Positions 47,011-62,340 of a DNA stretch of 64,000 nucleotides are shown here, one piece after another. Positions within the stretch are counted from its first letter, which is position 1, and each line of letters begins with the position of its first letter. Source of the DNA: an uncultured Gammaproteobacteria bacterium (lineage in GTDB: Bacteria > Patescibacteriota > Microgenomatia > Daviesbacterales > UBA10151); assembly GCA_964393545.1 (NCBI GenBank), contig CAYMUB010000058.1, positions 12,297 to 76,296 of the forward strand, read 5' to 3'. The notes below the pieces were generated by a model that saw nothing but the letters and a program-made list of their open reading frames with translations, did not search any database and was not told the DNA's origin. The translations under genes and the position numbers were made by a program.

Positions 47011-50000
47011 TTATAAACCTTTACTTCTATTTTTTAAATTAATTTGCATGCGGGTAAAATAACCAACTAGGATTAAAATTGAAATGATTATAAAAGCAAA
47101 AGAGAGTTTTCGTCCTATTGCAAGCACTCTTTCGGGAGAGTACTCTAAAAACATTTCGAAGTTACCTGTTTTTTCTATATACCAACCATTGGAATATCCG
47201 TTAACCTCAAGGTGATTTTTCGTAGGCATTTGATCACTTCTACCATCGGAGGTAGTAAAATATGCACTCCATTTTGGGTCGAATGAGGTAGAGAGTACTA
47301 AAAAGAAAGGGTTTTGAGCATTGCTCACCCTTACCTTATATCTGGCAGGACTGATCATTTCAAAATCTATTTTGGGAGGAATCTTCTTGATAGAATCCGC
47401 TTCCACTTCCCGTAGAATAACCTGATTAAGAAATTGCTTTTCCACCTTTAGATTGCGGATCTTGGTACTTGAATCCTTCAAAAATCTTTGGTTAAAACTG
47501 TTATCCTCACAATATCTACGGTAAGGACGCTGAACTACTCCTTTACAATCTCCAAAGGGAATAATTTTTATTGATATATAATTTTCGCCAGAAGCAGGAA
47601 ATGGTGTAAAGGTAGCATTATATTTTTTCCACCCAAAATCATAATTATCCCGGGTTAAAGCTATTCCAAACCTGGGAATTTTTTCCCCTTTTGTATCTAT
47701 GAAATCAACATCTGAGTGGATTGCTATGACTGGAATATTGCCTTTTTCCTCAAGATATTCAAATGAAATTGAGTAGCTGAAATTGTTATCTAACTGCCCA
47801 ATTGGAATTATTTTTGTAATAGGTTTTTGATCTTCAGACGATAGATCTAACTCCTCTGGTAACTTCTCTGTAATAAGATTCTTCGCTTTAGGTTGAGTTA
47901 TACTTACCTCATGAATCCCTTTGTTAAGCTGGTATGTTCCTAAAGAAAAACTATATCCGTCATCTTTTTGCTTCAAAATATCTAATTTAATAACATTTCC
48001 ATCCAGATTTAATTCCGAAATTCCGATATTCTCAAAATAATAACTCCATTTACTTTTTGTGATTAAAACTTCATATTGGGAGTCCTTTGGTACATAAAAA
48101 CGGTGGATTAAATCCTTGTCTGTAGGATATACTGATTTAGCTCTTATAGCAATCAATAAACTGTCAAGATCAGAAACAATTTGATCTATAATTTTAGAAT
48201 CCTTAGTCTTTTTCTTAATCACCTCCAAAGCTTCACTTTGATTTATCAATACTTCAACTATTGCTCTATCAATTGATTTAGAGCTAATTAACTCAGTAGC
48301 AATTGATTGAATCCCTTGATAGTATTCATTAACTGCTGACACATCCTCTGGAGAATGATTTATTTCTGCCAGTCTTTTTCCCAGCAAATTAACCCGAAAA
48401 CCCATCTTGGTATCCGGAGTCTGCAGTTGATTTTCCAACTCTTCCCTTAGTCTCACTAAAGCATAAAAAGGAGTATCCCGGTAAATACTCACAAAAGGCA
48501 GGTTCTCAATTAATTTGTTTAAATTAATTTTAATGTCTTCAATTTTAGTCCCATTAATTATAATTTTATCAGCGAATGCTAAATATGGATTCTCTAAAAT
48601 ATTCCCGACTGGAGATTCAGGAGGAACAATAAAGATCTCGTCACCTAAAGAATTAGAAAAAGGCATCAGATTCAAACCCTTTCCTATAGAATTGGATAAA
48701 TAGACAAGTTTTGTACGGGCAAAAACTTTGGGTGTAAATTGAGCAGGATTCAATTCAAAAAATTTTAACTTACCAAATTCAGCAACTTGTGAGAAATGTT
48801 CAGCTGCATATTCTTTTAATTTGGCTAAATCTGTTGCTGGAGCTTCTGTATCCCTGGCCAAATAATCAATATCATCACGCACCATAATATATTTCACATT
48901 TAATTGTTGTGCCAGATTCCAAAGTTTATCAGGATAATCCAACAAAGTCTGTTTAATATTGTCTACCAACTCCGGTAAAGAACCGTTACTAGTATTTAAT
49001 GAAATCATTGGTTGATCGAAGAGATTATTAGAAAGCTCTACGCCTGCAAAACCATATTCCCATTTATAAGTCATCCCTTCCCCATCAATGGGCAATACCA
49101 ATACTCTAAAAACACCCGGCTGTTTATCTAACCACTCTCTAGCATCTTTATAATAATCTGGTACCTTAACATACTGACCAATATTAATATCATTGGCAGG
49201 AGGACCTCCTCCTGTAAAAACTAAGCCCGTAACCGTAGGAAACATAAACACGGGAAAAGCCAAAGTTAAAATTAAAAAAGCCATTAATTTTTTTGAAAAC
49301 CTCAGTTTACTACTCAAAGCATTAACAATCCCAACAATGCCAAATCCAACAGGAATAGCCATAGCAAAGGGTAACAATAATCCAATTTTTTCAAACGGAT
49401 TTCTAAAAACATGCAAAAATGTAAACCATTCAAATATACGCAACGTAACACCACCAAAAGGCGCTAAAGTACCTTTCATCCAAAACATAACTATTAATGC
49501 TACTAAAATTAAGAACTTGTAAAGCAGCTCTTTTTCTCTCTTGAATAAACCCACAATAAAAGCAATTATTGAAAAAAAGCTTAAGAGTATAAAAGGAGTT
49601 GTGCCATAAATCCATACCCATGAAGTATTGTCTTTAAGATAATCATTTGGTTTGAAGAGTCGGAAAACACCCAAAACCGATTCTATTTGATCACTAATTC
49701 CCTTAAACGTAGCGATATTATCCGAAGGATTAAAAGATTTACCAGAACCTCTGCTTCCTAAATCAACAAACACTGAAGCAAATAATGGGCTTAACCACCA
49801 GCAATTCACCAGTATAAAAATTACTGCAAATACTAAAAAGTAAAATAAGGGAAAATAATCTTTCTCCTTTTTAAAGGTTGATACAAATACAAAAATGCTC
49901 AAAAAACCTAATATTCCAAAAAACAATTCCAAAAAAGCAGGACCAACAAATGTAAAACTAAAAATAAGGCTTGCTAAACTTAGTACAACCAAATAAATAA

Positions 50001-50550
50001 AATTTTTAGACTTTAACCCTTTAAAGTATATAAGAAATGCAAGCGGCATAAAACCGTAAAAAAATATCAAGGGATATTGAAATCTGTGTAGTACCGATAT
50101 ATGTGCTATTGGGTTAAAAATATAAAACAAGGCTGATGATAATCTGGATAAAGGAGAATTCTCTTTAATTAAGGAAGCAATTTTATGAACAGAAAGTACT
50201 CCAGCAACAAATATCAACCAAAATAATCCCCCCTGAAGAATATAGCTGGGAACATTCAGTTGCTGAAAGAATGCAACTATCCCATAAAGGGGATAACTTG
50301 GAAATGCAATTGAACCATTACCACCAATAGGCACATCAGCCCAACTACTTTTTAATATTTCAAAAAGTCTTGATGTGTTATAAAAAGGTAAACCTGATTC
50401 ACCAGAACCGAGAATTAATCCTTTTCTAAACCAAATAGCTACAAGCGCAGTTATCAAAAGTATTAAAAAGAATCTTTCTTTAGCTAGTTGGCTTTTAAAA
50501 TTTTTTGACAAGAAATTATTTATATTTACTATACGTAAGAATTCTTTCAT
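47011..50550 (-). CDS. Giant polytopic membrane protein (1179 aa). Its N-terminal GT-C-like TM domain, large extracytoplasmic region and C-terminal TM anchor give it AftD/DUF3367/YfhO-like architecture.
   Basis: FRKGLILGSGESGLPFYNTSRLFEILKSSWADVPIGG is followed by about 14 TM helices, then roughly 700 aa of soluble domain. The protein ends FAFIIISILILVGYF (a TM helix). Confidence 0.5.
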   Translation of the reverse strand: MKEFLRIVNINNFLSKNFKSQLAKERFFLILLITALVAIWFRKGLILGSGESGLPFYNTSRLFEILKSSWADVPIGGNGSIAFPSYPLYGIVAFFQQLNVPSYILQGGLFWLIFVAGVLSVHKIASLIKENSPLSRLSSALFYIFNPIAHISVLHRFQYPLIFFYGFMPLAFLIYFKGLKSKNFIYLVVLSLASLIFSFTFVGPAFLELFFGILGFLSIFVFVSTFKKEKDYFPLFYFLVFAVIFILVNCWWLSPLFASVFVDLGSRGSGKSFNPSDNIATFKGISDQIESVLGVFRLFKPNDYLKDNTSWVWIYGTTPFILLSFFSIIAFIVGLFKREKELLYKFLILVALIVMFWMKGTLAPFGGVTLRIFEWFTFLHVFRNPFEKIGLLLPFAMAIPVGFGIVGIVNALSSKLRFSKKLMAFLILTLAFPVFMFPTVTGLVFTGGGPPANDINIGQYVKVPDYYKDAREWLDKQPGVFRVLVLPIDGEGMTYKWEYGFAGVELSNNLFDQPMISLNTSNGSLPELVDNIKQTLLDYPDKLWNLAQQLNVKYIMVRDDIDYLARDTEAPATDLAKLKEYAAEHFSQVAEFGKLKFFELNPAQFTPKVFARTKLVYLSNSIGKGLNLMPFSNSLGDEIFIVPPESPVGNILENPYLAFADKIIINGTKIEDIKINLNKLIENLPFVSIYRDTPFYALVRLREELENQLQTPDTKMGFRVNLLGKRLAEINHSPEDVSAVNEYYQGIQSIATELISSKSIDRAIVEVLINQSEALEVIKKKTKDSKIIDQIVSDLDSLLIAIRAKSVYPTDKDLIHRFYVPKDSQYEVLITKSKWSYYFENIGISELNLDGNVIKLDILKQKDDGYSFSLGTYQLNKGIHEVSITQPKAKNLITEKLPEELDLSSEDQKPITKIIPIGQLDNNFSYSISFEYLEEKGNIPVIAIHSDVDFIDTKGEKIPRFGIALTRDNYDFGWKKYNATFTPFPASGENYISIKIIPFGDCKGVVQRPYRRYCEDNSFNQRFLKDSSTKIRNLKVEKQFLNQVILREVEADSIKKIPPKIDFEMISPARYKVRVSNAQNPFFLVLSTSFDPKWSAYFTTSDGRSDQMPTKNHLEVNGYSNGWYIEKTGNFEMFLEYSPERVLAIGRKLSFAFIIISILILVGYFTRMQINLKNRSKGL

Positions 50551-51604
50551 CCTTAGCCTCCTTAGAAAGCATTATGGGAGTAATCACTCTTTGAACCCAT
50601 CTTAGATGTTTATAAAAAGCCCATAAAGATAACCTCCCAAATATTTGGTCATGGAGATACTCATCAGAAACAGCTCTAACTTGATTTTGAATTATTTGCC
50701 TTTTCTTAAGTGCTTTAGGAAGATAACCAAGAGACCAAAAAATTGACTTAATCCAACCCTTTAAAGGATCGGGATTACCTTGTATTAAAGTCACTAATCC
50801 TCTAATTGTATAGACAGCGATCAGTTGTGGGAGATAAATTAGAAGATACTTTATACTATAGTTTTGTATAAATAGATTTATCATTTTAGCATATGCAAAT
50901 TCCCATTTAACAGATCCTCTACCCATCTTAAGTGACCAATGATAAATTTTTGCAGAAGGAACTCTTACAACCTTAAAACCTGCAAGCCAAGTTCTCCATA
51001 TCATATCCAAATCATTTATATTCAAATCTATATCAACATCAAACAACCCGGCTTTTTCAAAAACCTCCTTTTTAAATAACGTACCATCTATCCCACTAAA
51101 ACCAACAAAAGGTTTGTTATATTTTTTACTGTCTTTAAAACCATACTCTGGAATATACAAGAATCCCGTTTGTGGCATTAAATACATTCTATAGGTTTGA
51201 ATTCGATCATGTTTGTGATAATCTAGAATTTTTGCAACTACAGCTCCTACAGATTGATCAGGAACTCTTTCAATAAAGTTCACCAATTCATTTAGACAAT
51301 TAGGATCAGTAAACTCATCAGTCATAAAAAATACAATATATTTACCTTTACTTTTCTTTATTCCTAAATTCAATGACTTACCAATACCTAAATGTATTTT
51401 ATTAACAATAATATGCCAATTTTCTTTTCTCGCTGTAATCTGTTTTGCTTTCTCCACACCACTATCAAAAGAAGGATCAAAAACCATAATCACTTCTAAA
51501 TTTGAGTAATGGATATTGCTAATATTTTTGATAAAATTACTAATGAAATATTCTGCTCTATAGGCTGGAATTATTACACTGACCAATGGTGATTTCTTTT
51601 TCAT
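50516..51604 (-). CDS. Glycosyltransferase family 2
   Basis: VSVIIPAYRAEYFI...FFMTDEF and a GT-A fold are present. Confidence 0.75.
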   Translation of the reverse strand: MKKKSPLVSVIIPAYRAEYFISNFIKNISNIHYSNLEVIMVFDPSFDSGVEKAKQITARKENWHIIVNKIHLGIGKSLNLGIKKSKGKYIVFFMTDEFTDPNCLNELVNFIERVPDQSVGAVVAKILDYHKHDRIQTYRMYLMPQTGFLYIPEYGFKDSKKYNKPFVGFSGIDGTLFKKEVFEKAGLFDVDIDLNINDLDMIWRTWLAGFKVVRVPSAKIYHWSLKMGRGSVKWEFAYAKMINLFIQNYSIKYLLIYLPQLIAVYTIRGLVTLIQGNPDPLKGWIKSIFWSLGYLPKALKKRQIIQNQVRAVSDEYLHDQIFGRLSLWAFYKHLRWVQRVITPIMLSKEAKDERILTYSKYK

Positions 51605-52599
51605 TTATTTTTAATATACCAATCAATTGTCTTTTTTAATCCATCAACAAAAGGTGTTCTTGCAATAAATCCAAATTTTTCTTTTGCTTTAGTATTATCA
51701 CTATTTCTCCTTGGACTTCCATCTGGCTTGGAAATATCAAAAATAACTTTTCTTTTCTGTCCGCATATTTTTAAAATTATCTCAATTAACTCCTTAATTG
51801 ATATTTCCTCATCTGTCCCTAAATTAATTGGATCCGGTACGCAAATTTTTTCAATTGCAAGCATTATCCCTTCTGCCGCATCCTCTGCGTATAGAAATGC
51901 CCTGGTTTGATTACCACTTCCCCAAACTACTAAAGGGTTCTCTCCGTCAAAAACCCGTTTTATTAAAGCAGGAATTACATGAGAAAGCTGGGGATCAAAA
52001 TGATCTCTGGGACCGTAGCAATTATAAGGCCTAACTATCCCTATATTCATACCGTATTCCTCCGAATAATATCTTCCCAACAGTTCTCCCATTCTCTTCC
52101 CCCAACCATAACCTCCATTTGTAGGTTCAGGCTCATTTCTAAACCCCTCTGATTCGGGAGTAGGTATAATCGCATCTCTTGGATATACACAAGCAGAAGA
52201 AACTTGTAAAAACCTCTCCACCTTAGCAAGCCTTGCCGCCTCCATCATATTACAAGCAATCAATAAATTCTCCCGCAAAATACTCCCATGATGTGCTCTA
52301 TTATATTCTATACCTCCAACTCTGGCTGCCATATTTATAACAATATTCTGATCCTTGCATGCTATCTGGCAGGTTTTTAAATTCTCGATATTACCATCTA
52401 TTAATTTAATTTTATCTTTAACGCTATTTATATTCTCAAGCTTGTTGGAACGAATATGGTCTAAAACAGTCACTACTGCACCATTTGCTACCAATCTTTC
52501 AGTAACATGGCTTCCAACAAACCCACATCCACCTGTTACCAAAACTTTTTTATTTTGCCAGAAGGAACTTTGTTCATCTTTCAAAAAAACCTTTTTCAT
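51601..52599 (-). CDS. NAD(P)-dependent sugar epimerase/reductase (extended SDR). It resembles GDP-fucose-synthase/CDP-abequose-synthase-type 4-keto-6-deoxy sugar reductases.
   Basis: VLVTGGCGFVGSHV is a Rossmann motif. YNCYGPRDHFDPQLSHVIPALIKRV is close to the Fcl motif NLYGPHDNF..SHVIPAL. Confidence 0.75.
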   Translation of the reverse strand: MKKVFLKDEQSSFWQNKKVLVTGGCGFVGSHVTERLVANGAVVTVLDHIRSNKLENINSVKDKIKLIDGNIENLKTCQIACKDQNIVINMAARVGGIEYNRAHHGSILRENLLIACNMMEAARLAKVERFLQVSSACVYPRDAIIPTPESEGFRNEPEPTNGGYGWGKRMGELLGRYYSEEYGMNIGIVRPYNCYGPRDHFDPQLSHVIPALIKRVFDGENPLVVWGSGNQTRAFLYAEDAAEGIMLAIEKICVPDPINLGTDEEISIKELIEIILKICGQKRKVIFDISKPDGSPRRNSDNTKAKEKFGFIARTPFVDGLKKTIDWYIKNK

Positions 52600-52601
52600 T
52601 T

Positions 52602-53774
52602 TTAACTAAATATTTCAATCAACTCTTTAATTTCGGCTTGTGTTAACTCTGGATTATTCCCAAAATATAAACCTTGTTCGTGTATAATCCTAGCATTTAC
52701 GTTTTCATCAATGCGATTATTTATATATTTTTTGTAGAATGGTTGCAATTCCATATCTCCACCTACAATTGGTCTAATCTCTACTTTATCTTTACATTTC
52801 TCTACTAAATCGTTTCTAATTTTCTGAGATTTACAAATTACTGGTATCGCAAAATTTGAGAGAAAATCTATATGCTGATACTTTAAGGAATAGTATTTAT
52901 TAGTTTTTTTATAAATTGAAGTTGCTATTTTTAAAAAATTATCTCTTCTCCTGGAGAGGATTTCATCCAGATATTGCATTTGTGCATTTCCGATAAATCC
53001 ATTAATTTCTGATGTTCGCAAATTATACCCTAAATCATAGAACGTATAACGAGAGTAAAATGTAGAATTAACATTATGCTTCACCCGAATTTTTAATTGT
53101 TTTTGTTCTGTTAAGTTTCTATCCCATCCATGTGCTCTAACCATCTGAAGCATTATTTCAAGCTCTTCATTATCCGTACAAACTGCCCCACCTTCAATTG
53201 TCGATAAGTGATGACCGACATAAAAAGAAAATGTTGAAGCCATTCCAAAATTTCCAAGCTTACGACCTTTATATTCTGTTCCTAAGGACTCACAATTATC
53301 TTCAATTAATATAATCTTTTTCTTGTCACATATTTTCTTAATTTCATCTATATCATCACAAAATCCCAGCAAATTAGTAAGAAAAAGCATTTTGAGTTGG
53401 TATTTTTCAAGAACCTGAAGCAATTTTTCACTTGAAACGTTTAATGTATCCAGCTCAACATCTACAGGTACTGTACGTAATCCCAGCTGCATAAGTGGCA
53501 TAACATTGGTAGACCAAGTCACAGCAGAAAAACCTACATAGTCATCTTTTTTTAATTTTCCTAAATTGAGAAGTGCCTGAATTATAGCAAGATTAGCTGA
53601 ACTACCACTATTAACCATAACGCAATGTTTTCTTCCTTGCCATTTAGCAAATCCTATTTCAAACTTCTTGCATTCTTTTCCAATGCTTAGCTGATCTGAA
53701 GCCAGAATAAACTTACAAAGCTTTCTTTTTATTTCCTCCTCTTTATAAAATGTTGATTTAACAAGTTGAATCAT
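52602..53774 (-). CDS. DegT/DnrJ/EryC1 family PLP/PMP enzyme, predicted nucleotide-sugar 3-dehydratase (E1/ColD type)
   Basis: The motif FSFYVGHHLSTIEGGAV places His where aminotransferases of this family carry the Schiff-base Lys. That substitution is the hallmark of CDP-4-keto-6-deoxyglucose 3-dehydrase (E1) and of ColD. Confidence 0.75.
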   Translation of the reverse strand: MIQLVKSTFYKEEEIKRKLCKFILASDQLSIGKECKKFEIGFAKWQGRKHCVMVNSGSSANLAIIQALLNLGKLKKDDYVGFSAVTWSTNVMPLMQLGLRTVPVDVELDTLNVSSEKLLQVLEKYQLKMLFLTNLLGFCDDIDEIKKICDKKKIILIEDNCESLGTEYKGRKLGNFGMASTFSFYVGHHLSTIEGGAVCTDNEELEIMLQMVRAHGWDRNLTEQKQLKIRVKHNVNSTFYSRYTFYDLGYNLRTSEINGFIGNAQMQYLDEILSRRRDNFLKIATSIYKKTNKYYSLKYQHIDFLSNFAIPVICKSQKIRNDLVEKCKDKVEIRPIVGGDMELQPFYKKYINNRIDENVNARIIHEQGLYFGNNPELTQAEIKELIEIFS

Positions 53775-53813
53775 TGATATTTTAGGCGGGCCTAACTCCC
53801 TACTATAGCCTAA

Positions 53814-54860
53814 TCACTTCATAAGAACAACTGATGTTTTTTCGGTTCTAAAATATATCTTATAGATGTTGAAAATATTTGTAGAAATCATTATGCTGCC
53901 AAAAATATCTTTATCTCTAGCTTTCCTTAAACTTTGAACTTTTGATCTCTCTTTTAATGTATCTGATAAGAAAAATAAACTCCAAGCAAGTCCTTGCAAA
54001 ACTCCTAAAATTGCTGCAAAGCTTCCTTTTCTAAAAAGTACAGAAACTGCTCCTAAAGTATTAAGGATTAAAGAAAAGGGTAAGTATTTTATCGTATTAG
54101 AAAGCTCATAATTTTTAATTAACATTCTTATAGAGTTTTTACAAAGATGAAAATAAAGTTTATAGTTTAAATTATGTACTTTTGTGTAATGATAAACTTT
54201 CGAATTTGGAGCTAATACAACTCTATAGCCTGCAATCCATATTCTCCAGGAAAAATCTAAATCATCAGTAGTATGCTTAAGTTTTAGATCAAAACCCCCT
54301 ATCTTGCCTGCAACTTCTTTCCTAACAGCCAAAGCTGCTCCTAAAGCAATGATTTCCTCTTCCTTTTCAAATTGCCCATTATCTTTTTCTCCTCTTCCTA
54401 AAGGGATTCCAAAACCTGTGTAGGGATACAATTTCATCCCAATCTCTTGAATAACATCAGTTTTGTCAAAGTCAAAAATTTTGCATTGAACTCCTCCTAT
54501 AGTCTTATCTTTTGAAAAAACTTGAGAAATACCTTGTAACCAGTTCCTATCTACCTTAGTATCATTATCTAAAAATACCAAAATATCTCCCTTTGCTTCT
54601 TTGATAGCCCTATTTCTGCTAAAGGGTACACCTCTATTGACCTCATTTATTAAAATTCTGATTCTAGCATCCTTTTTTGCAAATTCATTAATTATTTCAA
54701 TACTAGAATCTGTTGACTTATTATCTATAAATATAATTTCATAATTCTTTGTGGAGGATTTTAATACTGATGTAATACAAGTCTTTAAATATTTCTCACC
54801 ATTACGATTTGCGATAATTATAGAAATAAGAGGGAGGTTAGTTTTCATATACTTATACAA
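53814..54860 (-). CDS. Glycosyltransferase family 2 with C-terminal TM segments
   Basis: LISIIIANRNGEKYLKTCI...IFIDNKSTDSS...FLDNDT is present. Confidence 0.75.
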   Translation of the reverse strand: MYKYMKTNLPLISIIIANRNGEKYLKTCITSVLKSSTKNYEIIFIDNKSTDSSIEIINEFAKKDARIRILINEVNRGVPFSRNRAIKEAKGDILVFLDNDTKVDRNWLQGISQVFSKDKTIGGVQCKIFDFDKTDVIQEIGMKLYPYTGFGIPLGRGEKDNGQFEKEEEIIALGAALAVRKEVAGKIGGFDLKLKHTTDDLDFSWRIWIAGYRVVLAPNSKVYHYTKVHNLNYKLYFHLCKNSIRMLIKNYELSNTIKYLPFSLILNTLGAVSVLFRKGSFAAILGVLQGLAWSLFFLSDTLKERSKVQSLRKARDKDIFGSIMISTNIFNIYKIYFRTEKTSVVLMK

Positions 54861-54955
54861 ATGTTTTACCTATTCTATAAGATCTTAAACTAATTTATCA
54901 ACCTATCAACTTGACTTATAGAGAAATATTGATTTAGTATTGATAAGATTAAAAT

Positions 54956-55732
54956 ATGAAAGTCATAATACTTTGTGGTGGCATCGGATATAGGCTTAAA
55001 GAAGAAACGGAATTTAAACCAAAACCAATGGTTTCTATCGGTAATCAACCTATTCTATGGCACATAATGAAAATTTATTCACACTTCGGATTTAATGAAT
55101 TTATTATTGCCTTAGGATATAAGGGTGATTATATAAAAGATTATTTTTTAAACCAGAAATATTTCACTGATAATTTTACTCTTAATACCAAAAACGGATT
55201 TGTTAAACTACATAAAAACAATACAGATAATAAAGATGATTTTAAAATTACGTTTGTTGATACAGGACAAGAAACTCTACCTGGTGAACGTATTCTTAGA
55301 GTAAAAGATTTTATACCAGAAACTGATCAAGATTTTATGGTGACATATGGAGATGGTGTATCAGATGTAAATATTGAACAATTAGTTAAATTTCATAAAA
55401 AACATAATCTAGTTGGGACAGTTACAGGTGTTCATCCAAGAAGTAAATACGGACTTTTAACAATAGACAAAAACAATGTTGTACAAAATTTTTTAGAAAA
55501 ACCGGTACTTGAGGAGTGGATTAATGGCGGATTTATGATCTTTAAGAGAGAGTTTTTTTCATACCTTAGAAAAGGGGAGTTTGAACATCCAGCCATTAAA
55601 AGACTTATCAACAATAAGCAGCTTTCTGTTTTTATTCACGATGGATTCTGGCACTCAATGGATTCCTATCCAGATGTTGATAATCTTAATAAACTATGGA
55701 ATGAGGATCCAAAGTGGAAAATCTGGAAATAG
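54956..55732 (+). CDS. rfbF: Glucose-1-phosphate cytidylyltransferase
   Basis: MKVIILCGGIGYRLKEETEFKPKPMVSIGNQPILWHIMKIYSHFGFNEFIIALGYKG matches canonical RfbF/DdhA. Confidence 0.85.
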   Translation: MKVIILCGGIGYRLKEETEFKPKPMVSIGNQPILWHIMKIYSHFGFNEFIIALGYKGDYIKDYFLNQKYFTDNFTLNTKNGFVKLHKNNTDNKDDFKITFVDTGQETLPGERILRVKDFIPETDQDFMVTYGDGVSDVNIEQLVKFHKKHNLVGTVTGVHPRSKYGLLTIDKNNVVQNFLEKPVLEEWINGGFMIFKREFFSYLRKGEFEHPAIKRLINNKQLSVFIHDGFWHSMDSYPDVDNLNKLWNEDPKWKIWK

Positions 55733-56793
55733 AAAAAGAAGATTTATCTTATATTTTAGCCAATGCCAAAGAAGAATTTGAAGTTTTAGCTGGAAATAAA
55801 ATTCTTTTTACAGGAGCTAATGGTTTCTTAGGATATTACTTTATAAAATCGATTCTCTACTGGAATGAAATTAATCCCAATAGAAAAATCACTCTTTATG
55901 CATTAGATACTTTTGAATCGGGTGTACCAAGCTGGTTAAAAAATCCGCAAACAAAAATTCTTAGGAAAGATGTTACAAAATTTAAAATACCTGCAAATAT
56001 AAATCTTGACTATATTATTCATGCAGCTTCTATTGCTTCCCCAATTTTTTATAGACAATTCCCTATAGAAACAATGAAAGCCAATATTCAAGGACTCATA
56101 AATGCGTTGGAATATATGGTTTCTAAAAAAGATACAAAAAATTCGGTTAAAGGACTTTTATTTTTTTCATCGAGTGAGATATATGGAGATCCTACTAAGG
56201 GAAATATCCCCACCCCTGAGACTTATAGGGGAAATGTCTCTTGTACAGGTCCCAGGGCCTGCTACGATGAATCAAAGCGGTTCGGAGAAACACTTTGTGT
56301 TAATTATTCCAGTGTTCACAATCTTCCTATTAAAATTGCCAGACCATTTAATAATTATGGCCCTGGGTTAAAACTCACCGATGGTCGAGTGATCCCTGAT
56401 TTTGCAAAGGATATCTTAGCAAATGACAACATCACTCTCCTCTCACAAGGCTCCCCGACACGAACATTCTGCTATATAACCGATGCTATCGTAGGTTACA
56501 TAAAGATACTAATAAAAGGTAAAAATGGGGAAAGCTATAATATTGGGGTGGAAGAAGAAGAAATTTCTATGACTGATCTGGCAAAGAAAATGAAAGATAT
56601 ATCAGCTAAACTTTTTGAATATAGAGGCGAGGTAGTTATGGAAAAAAGTAAAGATCAAAATTATCTAACCGATAGCCCAAACAGAAGATGTCCTCAAATC
56701 TCAAAAGCCATGAAAGATTTAGAGTATAATCCTAAGGTTTCCTTGGACGAAGGACTTAAAAATACTTTAATTTGGTATAAAGGCAATTTATAA
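55714..56793 (+). CDS. NAD-dependent epimerase/dehydratase (extended SDR). By context it is the likely CDP-glucose 4,6-dehydratase.
   Basis: KILFTGANGFLGYY is the Rossmann motif and the catalytic triad lies in YGDPTK...Y..SK. It is translationally coupled to rfbF. Confidence 0.65.
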   Translation: MENLEIEKEDLSYILANAKEEFEVLAGNKILFTGANGFLGYYFIKSILYWNEINPNRKITLYALDTFESGVPSWLKNPQTKILRKDVTKFKIPANINLDYIIHAASIASPIFYRQFPIETMKANIQGLINALEYMVSKKDTKNSVKGLLFFSSSEIYGDPTKGNIPTPETYRGNVSCTGPRACYDESKRFGETLCVNYSSVHNLPIKIARPFNNYGPGLKLTDGRVIPDFAKDILANDNITLLSQGSPTRTFCYITDAIVGYIKILIKGKNGESYNIGVEEEEISMTDLAKKMKDISAKLFEYRGEVVMEKSKDQNYLTDSPNRRCPQISKAMKDLEYNPKVSLDEGLKNTLIWYKGNL

Positions 56794-58118
56794 TGAAAAT
56801 CTCTATTGTTGGAACAGGATATGTTGGATTAGTTACAGGAATATCTCTTAGTGAGTTAGGTCACGATGTTAATTGTATTGATAGTGACGAAGATAAGGTT
56901 TCAAAGATTAATAAAGGCATTTCTCCATTCTATGAACCAGGACTTGATGAAATACTTAAAAAATCATTAAAGAAAAATTTATCGGCTACAGTTGATTTAG
57001 AAAAAGCAGTTTGCCAATCAGATGTAATAATCATTGCAGTTGGTACCCCGACAATTAACGATAGTATTGATTTATCCTTTATTGAAAAGGCTTCTGAACA
57101 AATTGGCCAAGCCATATCAAAGGCAAAAAAATATCAGATAGTTGCTGTTAAGTCTACTGTTTTACCCGGAGTTAGTGAAAAGGTGGTAAAACCTATTCTT
57201 GAGAAATTCTCAAAGAAAAAAGCAGGAAAGGATTTTGGGCTTTGTATGAATCCGGAGTTTCTAAGAGAAGGCAGCGCTTTAGATGATGCTCTAAACCCTG
57301 ATAGGATTGTTATTGGGCAATTTGACGATAAAAGTGGTAAGGAATTTGCAAAAATTTATTCCAAAGTATCAGCCCCCAAAATATTTACTAATCTTCCCAC
57401 AGCAGAACTCACAAAATATGCTGCCAATGCGCTTTTTGCAACACTTATAAGTTTTTCCAATGAAATTGCCAGAATCTCAGAAAGCATTGGAAAAGTAGAT
57501 GTTCTGGATGTATGGAGTGGTGTGCATCTTGATAGAAGATTAAGTCCCATACAAGGTAATACAAGGATTAAACCAGGAGTATTAAGTTATATCCTTTCTG
57601 GATGTGGCTTTGGAGGAAGCTGTTTTCCAAAAGATATAAAAGCACTAGCTTCTTTTGCCAAGGATCAAGGAGTAGAAAACCCTTTTATTCAAAGTGTCAT
57701 AGACATTAATAATACTCAACCACATAGAGTAACTTTACTTCTTAAAAATGCTCTTGGAGAAAACTTGAAAGACAAAAAAATTGCTATTTTAGGTCTTAGC
57801 TTTAAGCCAAACACAGATGATACTCGTGAATCTCCTGCATTAGCTATCATAAAGGAACTTATATCAGAAGGTGCTAAAGTGATTTTGCATGATCCAATGG
57901 CAAAAAGTGCAAATTATCCTATGGCAAGTAAAGCAAAAGATGCTATAAAAGAAAGCGATGCAGCAGTTGTAGTTACTTCCTGGGAGCAGTATCGTAAACT
58001 GACTCCACAATTTTTCAAAGAAAATATGAAAAAACCTATTGTGATTGATGGAAGAAGAATATATGATAAAAATTCCTTTTTAAAGGCTGGAGTCATATAT
58101 AAAGGTATAGGCCTATGA
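56793..58118 (+). CDS. ugd: UDP-glucose 6-dehydrogenase / nucleotide-sugar dehydrogenase
   Basis: MKISIVGTGYVGLVTG is the NAD-binding motif. GFGGSCFPKDI contains the catalytic Cys motif. Confidence 0.85.
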   Translation: MKISIVGTGYVGLVTGISLSELGHDVNCIDSDEDKVSKINKGISPFYEPGLDEILKKSLKKNLSATVDLEKAVCQSDVIIIAVGTPTINDSIDLSFIEKASEQIGQAISKAKKYQIVAVKSTVLPGVSEKVVKPILEKFSKKKAGKDFGLCMNPEFLREGSALDDALNPDRIVIGQFDDKSGKEFAKIYSKVSAPKIFTNLPTAELTKYAANALFATLISFSNEIARISESIGKVDVLDVWSGVHLDRRLSPIQGNTRIKPGVLSYILSGCGFGGSCFPKDIKALASFAKDQGVENPFIQSVIDINNTQPHRVTLLLKNALGENLKDKKIAILGLSFKPNTDDTRESPALAIIKELISEGAKVILHDPMAKSANYPMASKAKDAIKESDAAVVVTSWEQYRKLTPQFFKENMKKPIVIDGRRIYDKNSFLKAGVIYKGIGL

Positions 58119-59395
58119 AATTAAGTTATCCTAAAAATCATTTTGTAAAAACAGGACATATTTCAAATTGTCAGGTATGTAATTCTCAAAAACTACATAC
58201 AATTTTGGACCTAGGTCATCAACCTCTTTGTGATAGCTTGCTCACCAAAGATATGTTAAATCAACCTGAAAAAACTTACCCCTTAAGGATGGTTTGGTGT
58301 GAAAATTGTACTCTAGTACAAATAGATTATTGTGTCTCAGGTGAAGAAGTCTATCATCCAGATTATCCTTACAGAAGCGGGATAACAAAAGAGCTGGCAA
58401 CCTATCAAGAAAGTATCGCTTCCTCTTTGGTAAAAAAATACAATTTAACCCCTAAAGATCTTGTTATAGATGTTGGATCAAATGATGGTACTTTATTAAA
58501 AGGTTTTCAAAAAGAGAATATTAAAGTATTAGGGGTTGAACCAACCAATATAGCAAAAATTGCTATCGCCAGTGGTGTAGAAACAGTCCAAGCTTTTTTT
58601 GATATTAAAACTTCAGAAAATATAAAGAAAAAATACGGGAAAGCTGCCTTGATTATAACTACCAATACTTTTGCTCATATGCAAACCTTGGGTGAATTTA
58701 TAATGGGTGCATATAATTTATTAGAGGATGATGGAGTTTTTGTTAATGAAACTCATTACATACTTGATGTAATAAGAGGCGGTCAGTTTGATACTATTTA
58801 TCACGAGCATTTGCGAACCTACTCACTAAAATCACTAATCAGTTTATTTAACCAATACGATTTCACAGTCACTGATGTTGAGAGAGGCGATAGATATGGA
58901 GGAAATATTAGAGTAATTGCCACCAAAGGTAAGGGCAGACAGGTTAGTACAGAAGTTAAAAAATTATTAAAATTGGAAGAAGAATTTGGACTTGATAAAA
59001 TTGAAACATATGTAAAATTTGCTGATCGTGTAAAACAGGCTCGTTTGGAATTTATGGACTTTGTAATTAAAACAAAAAAATCCGGCAAATCCATTGTTGG
59101 AAACTCAAGTCCAGCCAGAGCATCAACTCTTTTAAATTATTATGGGGTGGACCCTGAGTTACTCCCCTATCTTGCAGAACAACCTACTTCTTTAAAACTC
59201 AATATGTTCCTACCCGGAAAACATATTCCTATTGTAAATAACCAAAGACTTATAGTTGAACAGCCTGATTTCGTAGTTATCTTAGCCTGGCATTATGCCA
59301 AACCTATTATGGAGCAATTAAAGGCTAGGGGATTAAAATCAGATTTTGTAATCCCACTTCCCGATTTTAAGATAGTTAAAAATTCAGAAGTTTAA
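58115..59395 (+). CDS. NDP-hexose C-methyltransferase (TylCIII-like). It has a zinc ribbon, a class I SAM methyltransferase domain, and the C-terminal C-methyltransferase domain.
   Basis: The N-terminal CxxC...C ribbon is NCQVCNSQK...CDS. DVGSNDGT is SAM motif I. The length (about 410-430 aa) and layout fit the Methyltransf_13/14 sugar C-methyltransferases. Confidence 0.7.
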   Translation: MKLSYPKNHFVKTGHISNCQVCNSQKLHTILDLGHQPLCDSLLTKDMLNQPEKTYPLRMVWCENCTLVQIDYCVSGEEVYHPDYPYRSGITKELATYQESIASSLVKKYNLTPKDLVIDVGSNDGTLLKGFQKENIKVLGVEPTNIAKIAIASGVETVQAFFDIKTSENIKKKYGKAALIITTNTFAHMQTLGEFIMGAYNLLEDDGVFVNETHYILDVIRGGQFDTIYHEHLRTYSLKSLISLFNQYDFTVTDVERGDRYGGNIRVIATKGKGRQVSTEVKKLLKLEEEFGLDKIETYVKFADRVKQARLEFMDFVIKTKKSGKSIVGNSSPARASTLLNYYGVDPELLPYLAEQPTSLKLNMFLPGKHIPIVNNQRLIVEQPDFVVILAWHYAKPIMEQLKARGLKSDFVIPLPDFKIVKNSEV

Positions 59396-59403
59396 AATAA
59401 AAA

Positions 59404-60084
59404 TTATTCCGCTTCCTTTTGAGCAGGATTCCGAAATCCCTCAATAGTTTGTTTTGCAGCTTCTGTTGTAACAATTCTTCCTTCACCTACCACCTGCAGA
59501 TTTGCATCAATAATATATACTAAAGCTTGTCCTTTTTGGGGGTAATAAGAATCCCGCATTTCGCCATAAGAAATAGGCAAGTCCGTATGTTTTAAACTCC
59601 AATCCCAAGCACAAAGAGGATCTCCATGACCCACAATTCCTACTGATTTATATCCACGTTTTCTAGCATCAGATAATATAAATTCCTTAGCTCTCTTTTC
59701 TCTTTCAATAAGATGATCTAAGCTTTCCTGATTTTTACTAAAAGGGTAGGCATATATATCCCCTCCTATTTTTGCCAAATCATCATATGTTTTACCTTCT
59801 GCACTATTAGGAAAAGTTTCTTTTAATTCATCAATAACATGTATATTGGCAGCAGAGATTACAGCAGCTACAGCTAACTCCTCTGCAGATTGTCTAGCTC
59901 TCAAAACTGGACTTACGTAGAGAGCATCCAAAATCTCTCCTTGCTCACCTAACCTAGCACCTAATTCCCTAAGTTGCGTCCTTCCCAGTTCAACCAAAGG
60001 AGCATCAGGACTTGAAACCAATTTTCTTCCTTGCTCATCTTTGGGATATAGCTGTTCACCATGACGTATAAGAAATATTTTCAT
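59404..60084 (-). CDS. Histidine phosphatase superfamily (phosphoglycerate-mutase-like) protein
   Basis: MKIFLIRHGEQ contains the RHG catalytic motif and HGD lies downstream. Confidence 0.7.
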   Translation of the reverse strand: MKIFLIRHGEQLYPKDEQGRKLVSSPDAPLVELGRTQLRELGARLGEQGEILDALYVSPVLRARQSAEELAVAAVISAANIHVIDELKETFPNSAEGKTYDDLAKIGGDIYAYPFSKNQESLDHLIEREKRAKEFILSDARKRGYKSVGIVGHGDPLCAWDWSLKHTDLPISYGEMRDSYYPQKGQALVYIIDANLQVVGEGRIVTTEAAKQTIEGFRNPAQKEAE

Positions 60085-60091
60085 AATAGTT

Positions 60092-61315
60092 TTATATTCT
60101 TATCTCTAAAGTCTCCATTTCTTCCCTTGTTTGAGCAAGTACAAATGCTTCCTTTTGTTGAATTATCTGTAATTGATCTTTTGTAAGGTGTTTTGATATA
60201 TCCCGCTCTACTAACTTACTTGTATAAGCAGACCAAACCATAGCGTATGCTAAATCTTTATATGCCCAAAACCTATTAGCAATAAATCCTATTTGGACTC
60301 CCCTTTCAGCTTCGGTTAATTCATTACCCTTTTTTTGCGCCAAAATATCTAACTCACGCTCCATCACAACTTGTTCGTCCTTTGCAATAGCTGCTAGTAG
60401 TTTAAGTCCTAATTTTACACCACTAGAAAGATTTCTATGATTATCAATATATTTATCAATGTTTCGAAGTCGATTTTCTCTTAGTAATAATTGATACCTT
60501 GCTGACTCGTCTTGCTTAATAACAAACTTATTTGTCTCACTATTAAACTCAAAAAAACACTTTGCGAGTTCGTCATATTTTTGTTTTGCAAGTGAATCAA
60601 TTGCTTGTAATATTTTAGGAAGATCCGGATGTTGAAATCCGTTCCGTCCATCTGTCATTATAAATCTCTTTCTACCCCGCTGATCTCTTATCTCACTAAA
60701 TACTCTGTCAAATGAAGGGAATGCGGTTTTTAGTGCAGGAACGATTTCACCAAAAAAAAGTCCTTCACCAAGTGCATATAAAGCTTCTTCCGTTCTTCCA
60801 GTTAAATCTGAGCTTTCCATAATATCTTTAGTACTAACTGATTCCAAATCCTCGGGGGTGTAGCCAGTTACATGGATATGAAGATTTCGTGGAATTGAAG
60901 CAAGAGGTGATTTCTCACCCCTTTTCAGATCTCGAGAATGATTTATTCCAAAGTCAACTTCAGAAATTCCTCCTTGATTCAAGATTTTCCGAGCGAGAGA
61001 TTCTGCAAGTTGGAGAGATTGTCCTAATGCTTCTGGGCTTAAATCAGCAATACCAGGAATATTTAAATGATCCTTTCGGTCTGGGATAACAAGCAGGTGA
61101 ATCCCATGTTCACCTGTCCAGGGACTTGCCACAGCCTTTACATAAACATCTTCTTTCTCCCCTACAATTCGTCCTAAATAATTAGCTCTGGTATCATCCA
61201 TCAGAGATAGTAATTTACCATCAACATTTTCCCGAGCGACATTTAAGACTTGGGCTACCCGAAAATCAGGATTTTTAAAGCGAGGGAGATTCCTACGAAA
61301 AATTCCTTCAGTCAT
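60092..61315 (-). CDS. Hypothetical protein with a HIT-like core (degenerate NxHxH histidine triad) and a C-terminal extension of about 200 aa
   Basis: HLLVIPDRKDH...NLHIHVTGY resembles HIT proteins (HFLVIPK...HVHLHVLGG), with the first His of the triad replaced by Asn. The start is placed at Met16 (MTEGIF), because the first 15 codons lie in an AT-rich promoter-like stretch shared with the divergent gene. Confidence 0.45.
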   Translation of the reverse strand: MTEGIFRRNLPRFKNPDFRVAQVLNVARENVDGKLLSLMDDTRANYLGRIVGEKEDVYVKAVASPWTGEHGIHLLVIPDRKDHLNIPGIADLSPEALGQSLQLAESLARKILNQGGISEVDFGINHSRDLKRGEKSPLASIPRNLHIHVTGYTPEDLESVSTKDIMESSDLTGRTEEALYALGEGLFFGEIVPALKTAFPSFDRVFSEIRDQRGRKRFIMTDGRNGFQHPDLPKILQAIDSLAKQKYDELAKCFFEFNSETNKFVIKQDESARYQLLLRENRLRNIDKYIDNHRNLSSGVKLGLKLLAAIAKDEQVVMERELDILAQKKGNELTEAERGVQIGFIANRFWAYKDLAYAMVWSAYTSKLVERDISKHLTKDQLQIIQQKEAFVLAQTREEMETLEIRI

Positions 61316-61368
61316 CTGGTAATTATAACAAACAAAAAGTAATAAAGTATAATAATACAAAGCAAAAC

Positions 61369-62340
61369 ATGTTGAGCAATTATAAAAATATTAGACCGCT
61401 TGTAATTGGATTGGGTGTTGCTGGGAAAAGACACCTTGAGGCGCAACTTAATTTAGGAATCAAAACTGGCATCTATACCACCAATCCTCAAACCATTAAA
61501 TACCTGAGAGATAACAGAAATGTAACTATTTTTAATAATCTGGAGGAAGGTTTAGATTGGTCTAATTTGGTCCATGTATGCACACCTGATGATAAGCATA
61601 CTGAGTATGTGGCTGCTGCAGTAAAAAAAAGAAAAGTTGTTCTGTGTGAAAAGGCTTTTACAACTAGTTTAAAGGATGCCATATATTTGCAAAAACTAGC
61701 TCATAAATATAAAGCGACTGTTATCGTAGGTCAGAATTACCGTCTTACTCCCTCTTTTGCAAAAACTAGAAAAATGATTAAACAAGGTGCTTTGGGAAAA
61801 ATTAATAAAGTTGAAATAACTTATCTTCATGATAAAAATGAGTACCAAAAAAGAAAAACCTTAAGGAAAAATGAAGATTTTCTGTATATCGGTGGTTCTC
61901 ATGCTGTTGATTTAGCTTGTTGGGTGATAGGGGAGCCAATAATCAATATTAAGGCTACCTCAAAAAATAATCTAAGTTATGAAATAACACTAGAATTTGC
62001 CTCCGCAATTTACACAAATATTATTCTAGATGCAAGTTCCGCTCAAACAATCAGTGGAACAGATTTAAAAGTTTATGGAGACAAAGGAAAGCTAGCAAGC
62101 CATAATAAAAAAAATGAGTTATTATTTTACACAGATAAAGACAAAAAACATAAGTCTATTAAACTACCAAATAGTCAAACCTTAACAACTCGGATTGAGG
62201 TAAGTATTATCGATGATTATCTTTCTGGAAAAATTAAGTCTTTTTGGCCACTACCTGAAGTTAATGAAGCTGCCCATATTATAAAAATCTTAGATGCAAT
62301 TCACAAGTCTACTTCGTTTAATCAGGAAATATCTTTGTAA
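61369..62340 (+). CDS. Gfo/Idh/MocA family NAD(P)-dependent oxidoreductase
   Basis: The Rossmann motif is PLVIGLGVAGKRHL. The family motif LCEKAF (EKP-like) is present, followed by the C-terminal alpha/beta domain. Confidence 0.8.
   Translation: MLSNYKNIRPLVIGLGVAGKRHLEAQLNLGIKTGIYTTNPQTIKYLRDNRNVTIFNNLEEGLDWSNLVHVCTPDDKHTEYVAAAVKKRKVVLCEKAFTTSLKDAIYLQKLAHKYKATVIVGQNYRLTPSFAKTRKMIKQGALGKINKVEITYLHDKNEYQKRKTLRKNEDFLYIGGSHAVDLACWVIGEPIINIKATSKNNLSYEITLEFASAIYTNIILDASSAQTISGTDLKVYGDKGKLASHNKKNELLFYTDKDKKHKSIKLPNSQTLTTRIEVSIIDDYLSGKIKSFWPLPEVNEAAHIIKILDAIHKSTSFNQEISL

Follow-up and report, generated by a model that had tools for sequence, protein, structure and literature searches.

The 64-kb window analysed here (contig CAYMUB010000058.1) is a segment of bacterial chromosome with a low guanine + cytosine content (~33%), and it carries a single and very large glycan-biosynthesis cluster that runs from ~22.7 kb to the window end. 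Two divergent operons, 95 bp apart, lie in the interval of this cluster studied here. The plus-strand operon holds a four-gene cassette that begins with an RfbF-like cytidylyltransferase and ends with a sugar C-methyltransferase, and the minus-strand operon holds a ColD-type 3-dehydratase and an Fcl-like epimerase-reductase. An earlier reading made from the letters alone (the sequence-only reading) had united these genes in one pathway to a cytidine diphosphate (CDP)-activated, C-methylated 3,6-dideoxyhexose. All of the open reading frames (ORFs) it named lie where it placed them; its observation is partly confirmed and its interpretation partly supported. The central genes are as follows.

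54956..55732, plus strand: RfbF-like glucose-1-phosphate cytidylyltransferase, 258 amino acids (aa), first gene of the cassette (TIGR02623, solved RfbF, synteny)
55714..56793, plus strand: UXS-like extended short-chain dehydrogenase/reductase (SDR), 359 aa, predicted nucleoside diphosphate (NDP)-glucuronate, here CDP-glucuronate, decarboxylase yielding a 4-keto-pentose (UXS1 similarity, motifs, synteny)
56793..58118, plus strand: NDP-sugar 6-dehydrogenase, 441 aa, predicted CDP-glucose 6-dehydrogenase (Pfam, TIGR03026, adjacency)
58115..59395, plus strand: TylCIII/MtmC/TcaB9-type S-adenosylmethionine (SAM)-dependent sugar C-methyltransferase, 426 aa (Pfam, solved relatives, motifs)
52602..53774, minus strand: ColD-type pyridoxamine 5'-phosphate (PMP)-dependent NDP-4-keto-sugar 3-dehydratase, 390 aa, with His188 for the Schiff-base Lys (ColD similarity, alignment)
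51601..52599, minus strand: Fcl/ColC/GME-like epimerase-reductase SDR, 332 aa, encoded after the dehydratase in a conserved pair

The plus-strand cassette and its relatives

By their coordinates, the four ORFs of the cassette (54956-59395) overlap one another, the RfbF-like gene and the SDR gene by 19 nt, the SDR and dehydrogenase genes by 1 nt and the dehydrogenase and C-methyltransferase genes by 4 nt. The first had been taken for a glucose-1-phosphate cytidylyltransferase, and this is credible. Its product scores 271.5 bits on TIGR02623 (cutoff 300.25) and aligns over its full length (residues 2-258) with S. typhi RfbF (1TZF, 189 bits). Counterparts outside Patescibacteria reach 300-463 bits on the same model, those of three phyla (442-463 bits) being bona fide RfbF. 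Orthologs that are 80-84% identical head the same cassette in L002-L004, L006, L008 and L117 (L-numbers denote comparison loci from other genomes or contigs).

The SDR had been described as a 4,6-dehydratase type coupled to rfbF. The 19-nt overlap bears out the coupling, but the enzyme itself is UXS-like and cannot be recognised as a 4,6-dehydratase. Its top match in the Protein Data Bank is human UXS1, a uridine diphosphate (UDP)-glucuronate decarboxylase (150 bits), with deoxythymidine diphosphate (dTDP)-glucose 4,6-dehydratases at 50-68 bits, and it lies below the cutoffs of both dehydratase models (50.8 vs 278 bits on TIGR02622, for CDP-glucose 4,6-dehydratase, and 100.4 vs 365 bits on TIGR01181, the dTDP model). 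The motifs SSSEIYG, GPRACYDESKR and NRRCP align with STSEVYG, GPRACYDEGKR and QKRKP of UXS1; the stretch corresponding to the first is STDEVYG in RmlB and SSDKAYG in the CDP-type dehydratase of L088. The T/S-x-E, YxxxK and conserved Arg of extended SDRs are all present, decarboxylases are nearest by similarity, and the family to which the protein belongs is highly conserved. On sequence comparison it is a subfamily distinct from the known UXS/ArnA-type decarboxylases. A role as uronate 4-epimerase was considered and rejected, since decarboxylases and dehydratases typically carry the Glu of the S-S-E stretch and epimerase structures score only 46-58 bits. Ring contraction of the UDP-apiose/xylose synthase kind was also rejected (65 bits vs 150 for UXS1).

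The third gene falls within the interval covered by the sequence-only reading, which overlooked it. Its product possesses all three UDPG_MGDP_dh Pfam domains, scores 429 bits on TIGR03026 and matches bacterial UDP-glucose dehydrogenases at 286 bits and guanosine diphosphate (GDP)-mannose dehydrogenase at 240 bits.

The fourth product had been recognised as a TylCIII-type C-methyltransferase with a zinc ribbon, and nothing in that description needs to change. All three domains are present, including the C-terminal C-methyltransferase domain (Methyltransf_13, PF08421, 78 bits; Methyltransf_23, PF13489, 49 bits; Methyltransf_14, PF08484, 146 bits). The protein scores 242 bits to MtmC (4RV9) and 193-199 bits to KijD1/TcaB9, and the four Zn cysteines Cys19/22/62/65 (CQVC, CENC), NTFAH (NxxxH) and YHEH (YxEH) align with MtmC and KijD1. 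We take the roles of these cysteines and of the NxxxH and YxEH residues to be those reported in studies of TcaB9. The domains, the Zn-Cys4 ribbon and both motifs are thus shared with the C-3-methyltransferases TylCIII, MtmC, TcaB9 and KijD1; the window enzyme is, however, only 30-32% identical to them. The known members use dTDP-4-keto-2,6-dideoxyhexoses supplied by 4,6-dehydratases, whereas the operon of the window enzyme also encodes a CDP transferase, a dehydrogenase and a decarboxylase, and the substrate of this enzyme is therefore probably a CDP-pentose.

The order of the four genes is kept in L002, L003, L004, L006, L008, L086 and L117. On Patescibacteria contigs it recurs with a Gfo/Idh/MocA oxidoreductase, a histidine phosphatase and a 422-aa protein nearby. 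A scan with the SDR, restricted to one genome per species, returned 80 loci (SDRs 52-74% identical) that span cyanobacteria, proteobacteria, Nitrospira, Planctomycetes, Acidobacteria, Verrucomicrobia and others. A dehydrogenase gene sits directly 3' of the SDR gene in 72 of 83 related loci. Fifty-one loci are well flanked, with at least 6 kb on each side of the SDR; every one of the 51 has a dehydrogenase, 40 an RfbF-like transferase, 31 an RmlC-like epimerase, 12 a C-methyltransferase and 1 an RmlA, and none has a CDP-4,6-dehydratase-like, Gmd or ManC gene (GalU/GalF was not queried). Among the 83 loci, a gene matching the SDK-type dehydratase best occurs once, and further SDRs that lie nearest RfbB occur in a few. 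The C-methyltransferases joined to the SDR-dehydrogenase module form two separate clades, one from Patescibacteria and one from elsewhere, a pattern that suggests repeated recruitment. His-type 3-dehydratases occur near the SDR-dehydrogenase pair in the window, L007, L113 and L117. Since C-methyltransferases, RmlC-like epimerases and 3-dehydratases repeatedly gather around this pair, it would be expected to be a source of 4-keto sugar. The fixed adjacency, the frequency of RfbF (40/51) and the absence of a CDP-4,6-dehydratase from these loci argue that the dehydrogenase and the SDR act serially on the RfbF product.

Other gene combinations were seen around relatives of the cassette. Outside Patescibacteria (L009-L085, e.g. 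L018:6470-7780 and L037:8133-8678) the trio of RfbF, UXS-like SDR and dehydrogenase usually occurs with a DRL_cat-domain oxidoreductase and an RmlC-like epimerase, in 36 loci each, and PIG-L and DUF4910/DUF2172/HTH_47 proteins are frequent neighbours. With such neighbours the trio looks like a widespread, uncharacterised CDP-sugar module. L007 (Levyibacteriota) has RfbF, SDR and dehydrogenase genes at L007:9190-12414, then an E1-like DegT gene at L007:12417-13649 (minus strand), whose product scores 241 bits to E1, has His at the Lys position and is without the E1 Fe-S cysteines. No C-methyltransferase gene lies within 10 kb; here the decarboxylase module and a 3-dehydratase have been brought together independently. 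L087:4651-12125 (Patescibacteria) encodes a Lys-type DegT aminotransferase, a cupin, a C-methyltransferase, a UXS-like SDR, a NeuD-like acetyltransferase, a ColD-like and an Fcl-like protein; its C-methyltransferase and SDR are 41% and 44% identical, respectively, to those of the window.

The ColD-type dehydratase and its Fcl-like partner

The DegT homolog (PF01041, 4.2e-65; motif FSFYVGHHLS) had been noted to carry His in place of the pyridoxal 5'-phosphate lysine, and the alignments agree. H188 (G-H188-H) aligns with H188 of ColD (S-H188-H), a column marked by the deposited ColD mutants H188N and H188K. In a joint alignment this column holds His220 of E1 and the Schiff-base Lys of ArnB and of a Lys-type DegT protein, and the window protein has no Lys at the Schiff-base position. 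H188-H189 is invariant in 20 homologs. His for the Schiff-base Lys is the mark of PMP-type 3-dehydratases, among which E1 (Fe-S) is distinguished from ColD (PMC8987622).

The sequence-only reading had invoked both enzymes; the assignment as PMP-type 3-dehydratase stands, but the analogy to E1 does not. The window protein matches E. coli ColD (2GMS), likewise of 390 aa, at 220 bits over residues 13-382 of 390, vs 139 bits for E1, and scores 208.8 bits on the RfbH model against a cutoff of 423. The E1 Fe-S motif and an E3 partner, to which that reading had also pointed, were both missing. The RDCYCAPGCDNTCKK stretch of E1 aligns to the Cys-free RNLTEQKQ--LKIR, no Cys occurs between residues 200 and 313, and no E3/ferredoxin-NADH reductase-type gene was found among the window proteins scanned. 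Lacking the Fe-S motif, the enzyme is considered ColD-type and in no need of an E3 partner, and an E1/E3 mechanism was rejected on the same ground. In ColD, PMP forms a Schiff base with the substrate, the 3-OH is expelled, hydrolysis follows and PMP is regenerated by glutamate (PMC8987622).

The Fcl-like 4-reductase/epimerase with its SHVIPAL motif, also named in the sequence-only reading, is confirmed. The SDR scores 205.4 bits on NF047922 (cutoff 500), 168 bits to GDP-fucose synthase and 160 bits to GDP-mannose 3,5-epimerase. VSSACVYP aligns with GSSCIYP of E. coli Fcl, SHVIPAL is common to both, Cys and His are kept and the SDR triad is present. The Cys and His presumably act as acid and base in epimerisation.

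The pair is conserved as a unit across related loci and resembles the colitose pathway (ColD and ColC): the dehydratase is full-length, has no Fe-S cluster and is immediately followed by the Fcl-like gene, and its mechanism would be expected to match. The supply genes set the two apart. Gmd and ManC are both absent from the 64-kb window, and in a neighbour-joining tree of 80 metagenomic ColD homologs those directly 3' of Gmd form their own clade, with partners 40-44% identical to the window Fcl-like protein. The window ColD falls in a separate, large clade, in which the partners directly after the ColD-like genes are 59-68% identical to the window Fcl-like protein and the identifiable supply genes are CDP-type. 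The gene after the pair in L088 codes for an SDR that, among solved structures, comes closest to CDP-tyvelose 2-epimerases (136 bits to 9RL0, and 122 bits); further downstream, RfbF (268 bits) overlaps an SDK-motif SDR (223 bits on TIGR02622), and L103, L111 and L154 are similar. Given these RfbF, SDK dehydratase and tyvelose-epimerase-like neighbours and the separate Gmd clade, the window ColD clade appears to be CDP-linked rather than Gmd-linked. A CDP assignment for the deoxygenation step is reasonable on these grounds. The CDP activation that had been deduced from rfbF is likewise plausible, as RfbF-type transferases dominate the related loci and the ColD clade is found with CDP genes.

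With the CDP-3,6-dideoxyhexose pathway (RfbF/DdhA, DdhB, E1/DdhC, E3/DdhD; AscA-F) the window shares an RfbF-type start and a His-for-Lys 3-dehydratase, and relatives of its pair sit with SDK-motif dehydratase-like and tyvelose-epimerase-like genes. It differs in that the dehydratase lacks the E1 [2Fe-2S] motif and falls short of the RfbH cutoff, and in that the window has neither E3 nor a CDP-glucose 4,6-dehydratase.

The loci of the L088 type are of interest in their own right. L088:9009-18959 contains, as do L096, L101 and L103, genes for an SDR, a ColD-like and an Fcl-like protein, a CDP-tyvelose-2-epimerase-like SDR, and RfbF overlapping an SDK-motif SDR. Such a set would make a CDP-3,6-dideoxyhexose by a variant of the classical pathway that uses an Fe-S-free ColD-type dehydratase and dispenses with E3. 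If true, the CDP-linked clade would show that 3,6-dideoxyhexoses can be made on CDP without the E1/E3 iron-sulfur system.

A proposed CDP-pentose route and its alternatives

We propose, with moderate confidence, that the interval comprises two modules of the very large glycan cluster: a CDP-4-keto-pentose C-methylation cassette and an accessory CDP-3-deoxy pair. RfbF would produce CDP-glucose, which the 6-dehydrogenase would oxidise to CDP-glucuronate; the UXS-like SDR, by C4 oxidation and decarboxylation, would convert this into a CDP-4-keto-pentose. The C-methyltransferase would methylate the carbon beside the ketone (C3 by analogy, C5 being possible too) and a reductase, probably the Gfo/Idh/MocA protein encoded nearby, would give the finished CDP-linked C-methyl pentose. 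The PMP-dependent, glutamate-regenerated and E3-independent ColD-type dehydratase, together with the Fcl/ColC-like epimerase-reductase, would make a CDP-linked 3-deoxy sugar, for use by the flanking GT2 and GT-C transferases. What the sequences show directly is gene identity, motifs, overlaps, synteny and co-occurrence; the substrates, the assignment of uronate and pentose intermediates to CDP and the position of methylation are all what we infer. The dehydratase pair may act on the 4-keto-pentose of the cassette or on CDP-4-keto-6-deoxyglucose from a dehydratase encoded elsewhere. The simplest reading of the comparative data would have the ketone of the 4-keto-pentose as substrate of whichever C-methyltransferase, epimerase or dehydratase each lineage attached.

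More tentatively, and judging it somewhat less likely than not, we suggest that RfbF, CDP-glucose 6-dehydrogenase and CDP-glucuronate decarboxylase constitute a widespread route to a CDP-4-keto-pentose. In Patescibacteria this route would be hard-wired to a C-methyltransferase, yielding a C-methyl-branched (or C5-extended) CDP-pentose, and in the window it would also feed the ColD-type dehydratase, yielding a 3-deoxy derivative.

To our knowledge, the documented glucuronate-decarboxylase routes to pentoses all use UDP or, rarely, dTDP, and the CDP sugars described are, in essence, limited to 3,6-dideoxyhexoses and alditol donors. NDP-4-keto-pentoses, described in UDP and dTDP versions only, serve as hubs for amination (ArnA/ArnB, CalS9, AtmS9) and for thiamine pyrophosphate (TPP)-dependent branching (EvdS6), and the decarboxylase structures do not account for whether the 4-ketone is released or reduced (PMC10338323). 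The cassette resembles these routes (Ugd/ArnA/ArnB, CalS7-S9/CalS13, EvdS6, RsU4kpxs) in its succession of nucleotidyltransferase, 6-dehydrogenase, UXS/ArnA-type SDR with UXS1 motifs and an enzyme acting on the 4-ketone (PMC10338323). It departs from them in having a cytidylyltransferase instead of a UDP or dTDP enzyme and a SAM-dependent C-methyltransferase instead of an aminotransferase or TPP enzyme, and its SDR, which scores ~150 bits to UXS1 and is extended by 28 residues at the N terminus, is of a distinct family.

Several points weigh against the proposed route. The chemistry would be unprecedented: nothing relevant to CDP-glucuronate, a CDP-glucose dehydrogenase or natural CDP-pentoses was found in the literature searched, where CDP-D-xylose is mentioned solely as a ligand in crystals of CDP-glucose 4,6-dehydratase, and CDP-arabinose solely as a guess in a phage preprint. 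No cassette enzyme reaches an equivalog cutoff. RfbF and the SDR both fall short (the best curated model for the latter, NF008872 for 4-keto-pentose/xylose synthase, gives 111.8 bits vs a cutoff of 294), and the dehydrogenase clears none of the equivalog cutoffs for UDP-glucose dehydrogenase; sequence does not reveal which nucleotide the dehydrogenase and the SDR are specific for. The S-S-E stretch of the SDR resembles the Gmd type too (STSELYG, T-S-E), and the motif alone cannot exclude a dehydratase. At L087 the SDR adjoins the C-methyltransferase and ColD-like genes though no dehydrogenase or nucleotidyltransferase gene lies within 10 kb, and a dehydratase role is conceivable at least for that SDR subfamily. 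The Fcl-like partner retains epimerase residues that would be superfluous for a 3-deoxy-4-keto-pentose. The portion of the genome analysed is the 64-kb window, which also counts against the proposal. The link between the two modules is weakened by most cassettes being without ColD and most ColD loci being without supply genes nearby. Also relevant to that link is L117, where ColD, GT2, GalE-like SDR, RfbF, UXS-like SDR, dehydrogenase and C-methyltransferase genes follow on one strand with short gaps. Near ColD-like genes, moreover, RfbF is coupled either to an SDK-type dehydratase (L088, L103, L111, L154) or to the UXS-like SDR (window/L086/L090, L113, L117), never to both. Both observations are consistent with a dehydratase that acts on the 4-keto-pentose of the cassette, or with C5-methylation as a route to a 6-deoxyhexose.

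The single CDP-linked C-methyl-3,6-dideoxyhexose of the sequence-only reading would require CDP-glucose to be converted into CDP-4-keto-6-deoxyglucose, by the rfbF-coupled SDR or by a dehydratase encoded elsewhere, and then to undergo 3-deoxygenation, C-methylation and reduction. We regard this as unlikely, although neither of the findings that the sequence-only reading had named as refuting it (a Lys at the Schiff-base position, a methyltransferase without its C-terminal domain) was made. RfbF, the His-type 3-dehydratase, the Fcl-like reductase and the C-methyltransferase are indeed encoded within 8 kb, and in L117 the ColD, RfbF, SDR, dehydrogenase and C-methyltransferase genes share one strand; the CDP-linked ColD clade sits elsewhere with an SDK-type CDP-4,6-dehydratase, and both the Gmd-like motif and the L087 relative would suit a dehydratase. 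However, the SDR is far nearer UXS, the 6-deoxy step finds no 4,6-dehydratase, Gmd or E3 in the window, and a dehydrogenase oxidising C6, present in 51 of 51 loci, makes no sense on a 6-deoxy route. Nor do the genes behave as one pathway. The ColD/Fcl pair is missing beside the cassette in five of seven SDR-anchored lineages (L002-L004, L006, L008), where no DegT or Fcl-like gene occurs within 8-10 kb, and the pair is mostly found without the cassette. A C-methylated 3-deoxy sugar may yet be the product; the evidence fits a pentose-based compound, or two distinct products, better. The nearest precedent for the single-pathway reading would be CDP-vinelose (CDP-6-deoxy-3-C-methyl-2-O-methyl-L-talose) of Azotobacter vinelandii, the only CDP-linked C-methyl-branched sugar known to us. 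It is reportedly a 6-deoxyhexose that keeps its 3-OH, implying neither dehydrogenase nor decarboxylase, and we know of no characterisation of its genes. A 6-deoxyhexose could also be reached by a roundabout path, in which the C-methyltransferase methylates C5 of the CDP-4-keto-pentose to give a CDP-4-keto-6-deoxyhexose for deoxygenation and reduction by the ColD/Fcl pair. The either/or coupling of RfbF and the C5-epimerisation residues kept by the Fcl-like partner would be explained, and a member of the methyltransferase family, NovU, is said to methylate C5 of a 4-keto sugar. Such a path would nevertheless be a wasteful substitute for a single dehydratase, the nearest methyltransferases of solved structure are specific for C3, most cassettes have no ColD, and L007 combines RfbF, SDR and dehydrogenase with a His-type DegT without any C-methyltransferase; we consider it highly improbable.

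Two further explanations would separate the modules from CDP-pentose chemistry altogether. In one, the dehydrogenase and the SDR provide an ordinary sugar supply, from UDP-glucose through UDP-glucuronate to UDP-xylose (or UDP-4-keto-pentose), and are chance neighbours of an RfbF and a C-methyltransferase that serve an unrelated CDP-hexose route with its dehydratase elsewhere. It is hard to reconcile with four genes that overlap or abut in a fixed order, and with RfbF at 40 of 51 loci where RmlA occurs once, ManC never and no CDP-4,6-dehydratase-like SDR would give RfbF another job. The nearest solved relatives of both enzymes are UDP-specific, and one source labels an SDR homolog UDP-glucuronate decarboxylase, but similarity to canonical UXS and UDP-glucose dehydrogenase is only moderate (150 and 286 bits) and under equivalog cutoffs. 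UDP and dTDP are the sole nucleotides documented for this chemistry (PMC10338323). On balance an ordinary supply role seems improbable. The other has the ColD/Fcl-like pair simply making GDP-colitose, with Gmd and ManC supplied from beyond the window and no relation to the CDP genes nearby. This too we find improbable, and slightly more so: the Gmd-linked ColDs occupy a separate clade with more distant partners (40-44% identical, vs 59-68% in the window clade, which has CDP-type neighbours), and the window contains neither Gmd nor ManC. In its favour are the nearest solved relatives, ColD (220 bits) and GDP-fucose synthase or GDP-mannose epimerase, the numerous ColD loci without any sugar-supply genes nearby, and some ColD homologs, 64-68% identical, that do lie directly 3' of Gmd (L137, L147, L155, L158).

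Should the favoured two-module interpretation hold, conversion of CDP-glucuronate to a CDP-4-keto-pentose would be a new branch of nucleotide-sugar metabolism and would assign a function to a widespread, consistently mis-annotated trio (cyanobacteria, Nitrospira, Planctomycetes, Acidobacteria, proteobacteria, Patescibacteria). Uncultivated Patescibacteria would be predicted to bear new branched or deoxy pentoses on their surfaces. The chemistry is a variation on what is known and does not amount to a new type of system; the CDP-uronate route itself is apparently undescribed and widespread.

Neighbouring genes and the rest of the window

The genes that flank the two modules, and the region between the operons, are listed below.

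47011..50550, minus strand: GT-C (AftD-like) polytopic membrane glycosyltransferase, 1179 aa, final gene of the minus-strand operon (Pfam GT-C_AftD, 1.3e-12; syntenic in L086)
50516..51604, minus strand: GT2 glycosyltransferase, 3' of the Fcl-like gene with a 4-nt overlap (Pfam Glycos_transf_2, 5.6e-22; syntenic in L086/L090)
53814..54860, minus strand: GT2 glycosyltransferase, first gene of the minus-strand operon (Pfam Glycos_transf_2, 1.7e-29; syntenic in L086/L090)
54861..54955, no strand: divergent intergenic region of 95 bp between the plus- and minus-strand operons
59404..60084, minus strand: histidine phosphatase family protein (Pfam His_Phos_1); orthologs adjoin the cassette in L003, L004, L006, L008 and L117 (Patescibacteria)
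60092..61360, minus strand: 422-aa protein of restricted lineage distribution, its N-terminal fold weakly resembling HIT/GalT, conserved alongside the cassette
61369..62340, plus strand: Gfo/Idh/MocA oxidoreductase, candidate ketoreductase completing the cassette product (Pfam GFO_IDH_MocA N- and C-terminal domains)

Orthologs of the Gfo/Idh/MocA protein, 58-66% identical, accompany the cassette in L002 (immediately 3' of the C-methyltransferase), L003, L004, L006, L086 and L117. No close characterised relative was found, and it is probably this protein that serves as final reductase for the cassette product. The 422-aa protein has no Pfam match. Its homologs number 23 in all, and the three with source names are Daviesbacteria (two) or plain 'bacterium'. 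An AlphaFold2 (AF2) model (predicted local distance difference test score, pLDDT, 66.5) has GalT-like/ADP-glucose phosphorylase and HIT proteins as top Foldseek matches (E ~1e-2, prob 0.98), and the sequence contains HLLVIP and HIHV motifs. The protein may take part in nucleotide-sugar turnover or exchange.

Promoter-like hexamers are present on both strands of the intergenic region, at a frequency not above that of shuffled sequence, and a promoter and terminator scan of 50000-62500 gave counts that likewise did not exceed shuffled sequence.

Beyond the interval, the glycan cluster encodes a sugar phosphotransferase, numerous GT1, GT2 and GT-C enzymes, and Wzx-like and Wzy-like proteins. Source labels on close homologs of cluster proteins are Candidatus Daviesbacteria, Levybacteria and Patescibacteria. 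ORFs of 299 to 894 aa with no Pfam match at E <= 1e-5 lie in or beside the cluster (42334-45018, 45183-46673, 31872-33404, 34422-35783, 15155-16714 and 16719-17618). A dcw cell-division cluster occupies 1-20 kb of the window. Between the two clusters, a PIN-domain gene (19548-19970) overlaps the start of recO (18908-19561). The sole MurB-like ORF of the dcw/mur cluster (9193-9777) encodes 194 aa with an FAD_binding_4 domain alone and may be truncated, split or mis-called. Towards the window end, an ORF at 62322-63983 on the minus strand encodes a 553-aa fusion of an N-terminal GT2 domain and a C-terminal class I SAM methyltransferase, which is kept at 75% identity in L086/L090 and might combine glycosylation and O-methylation in one protein.

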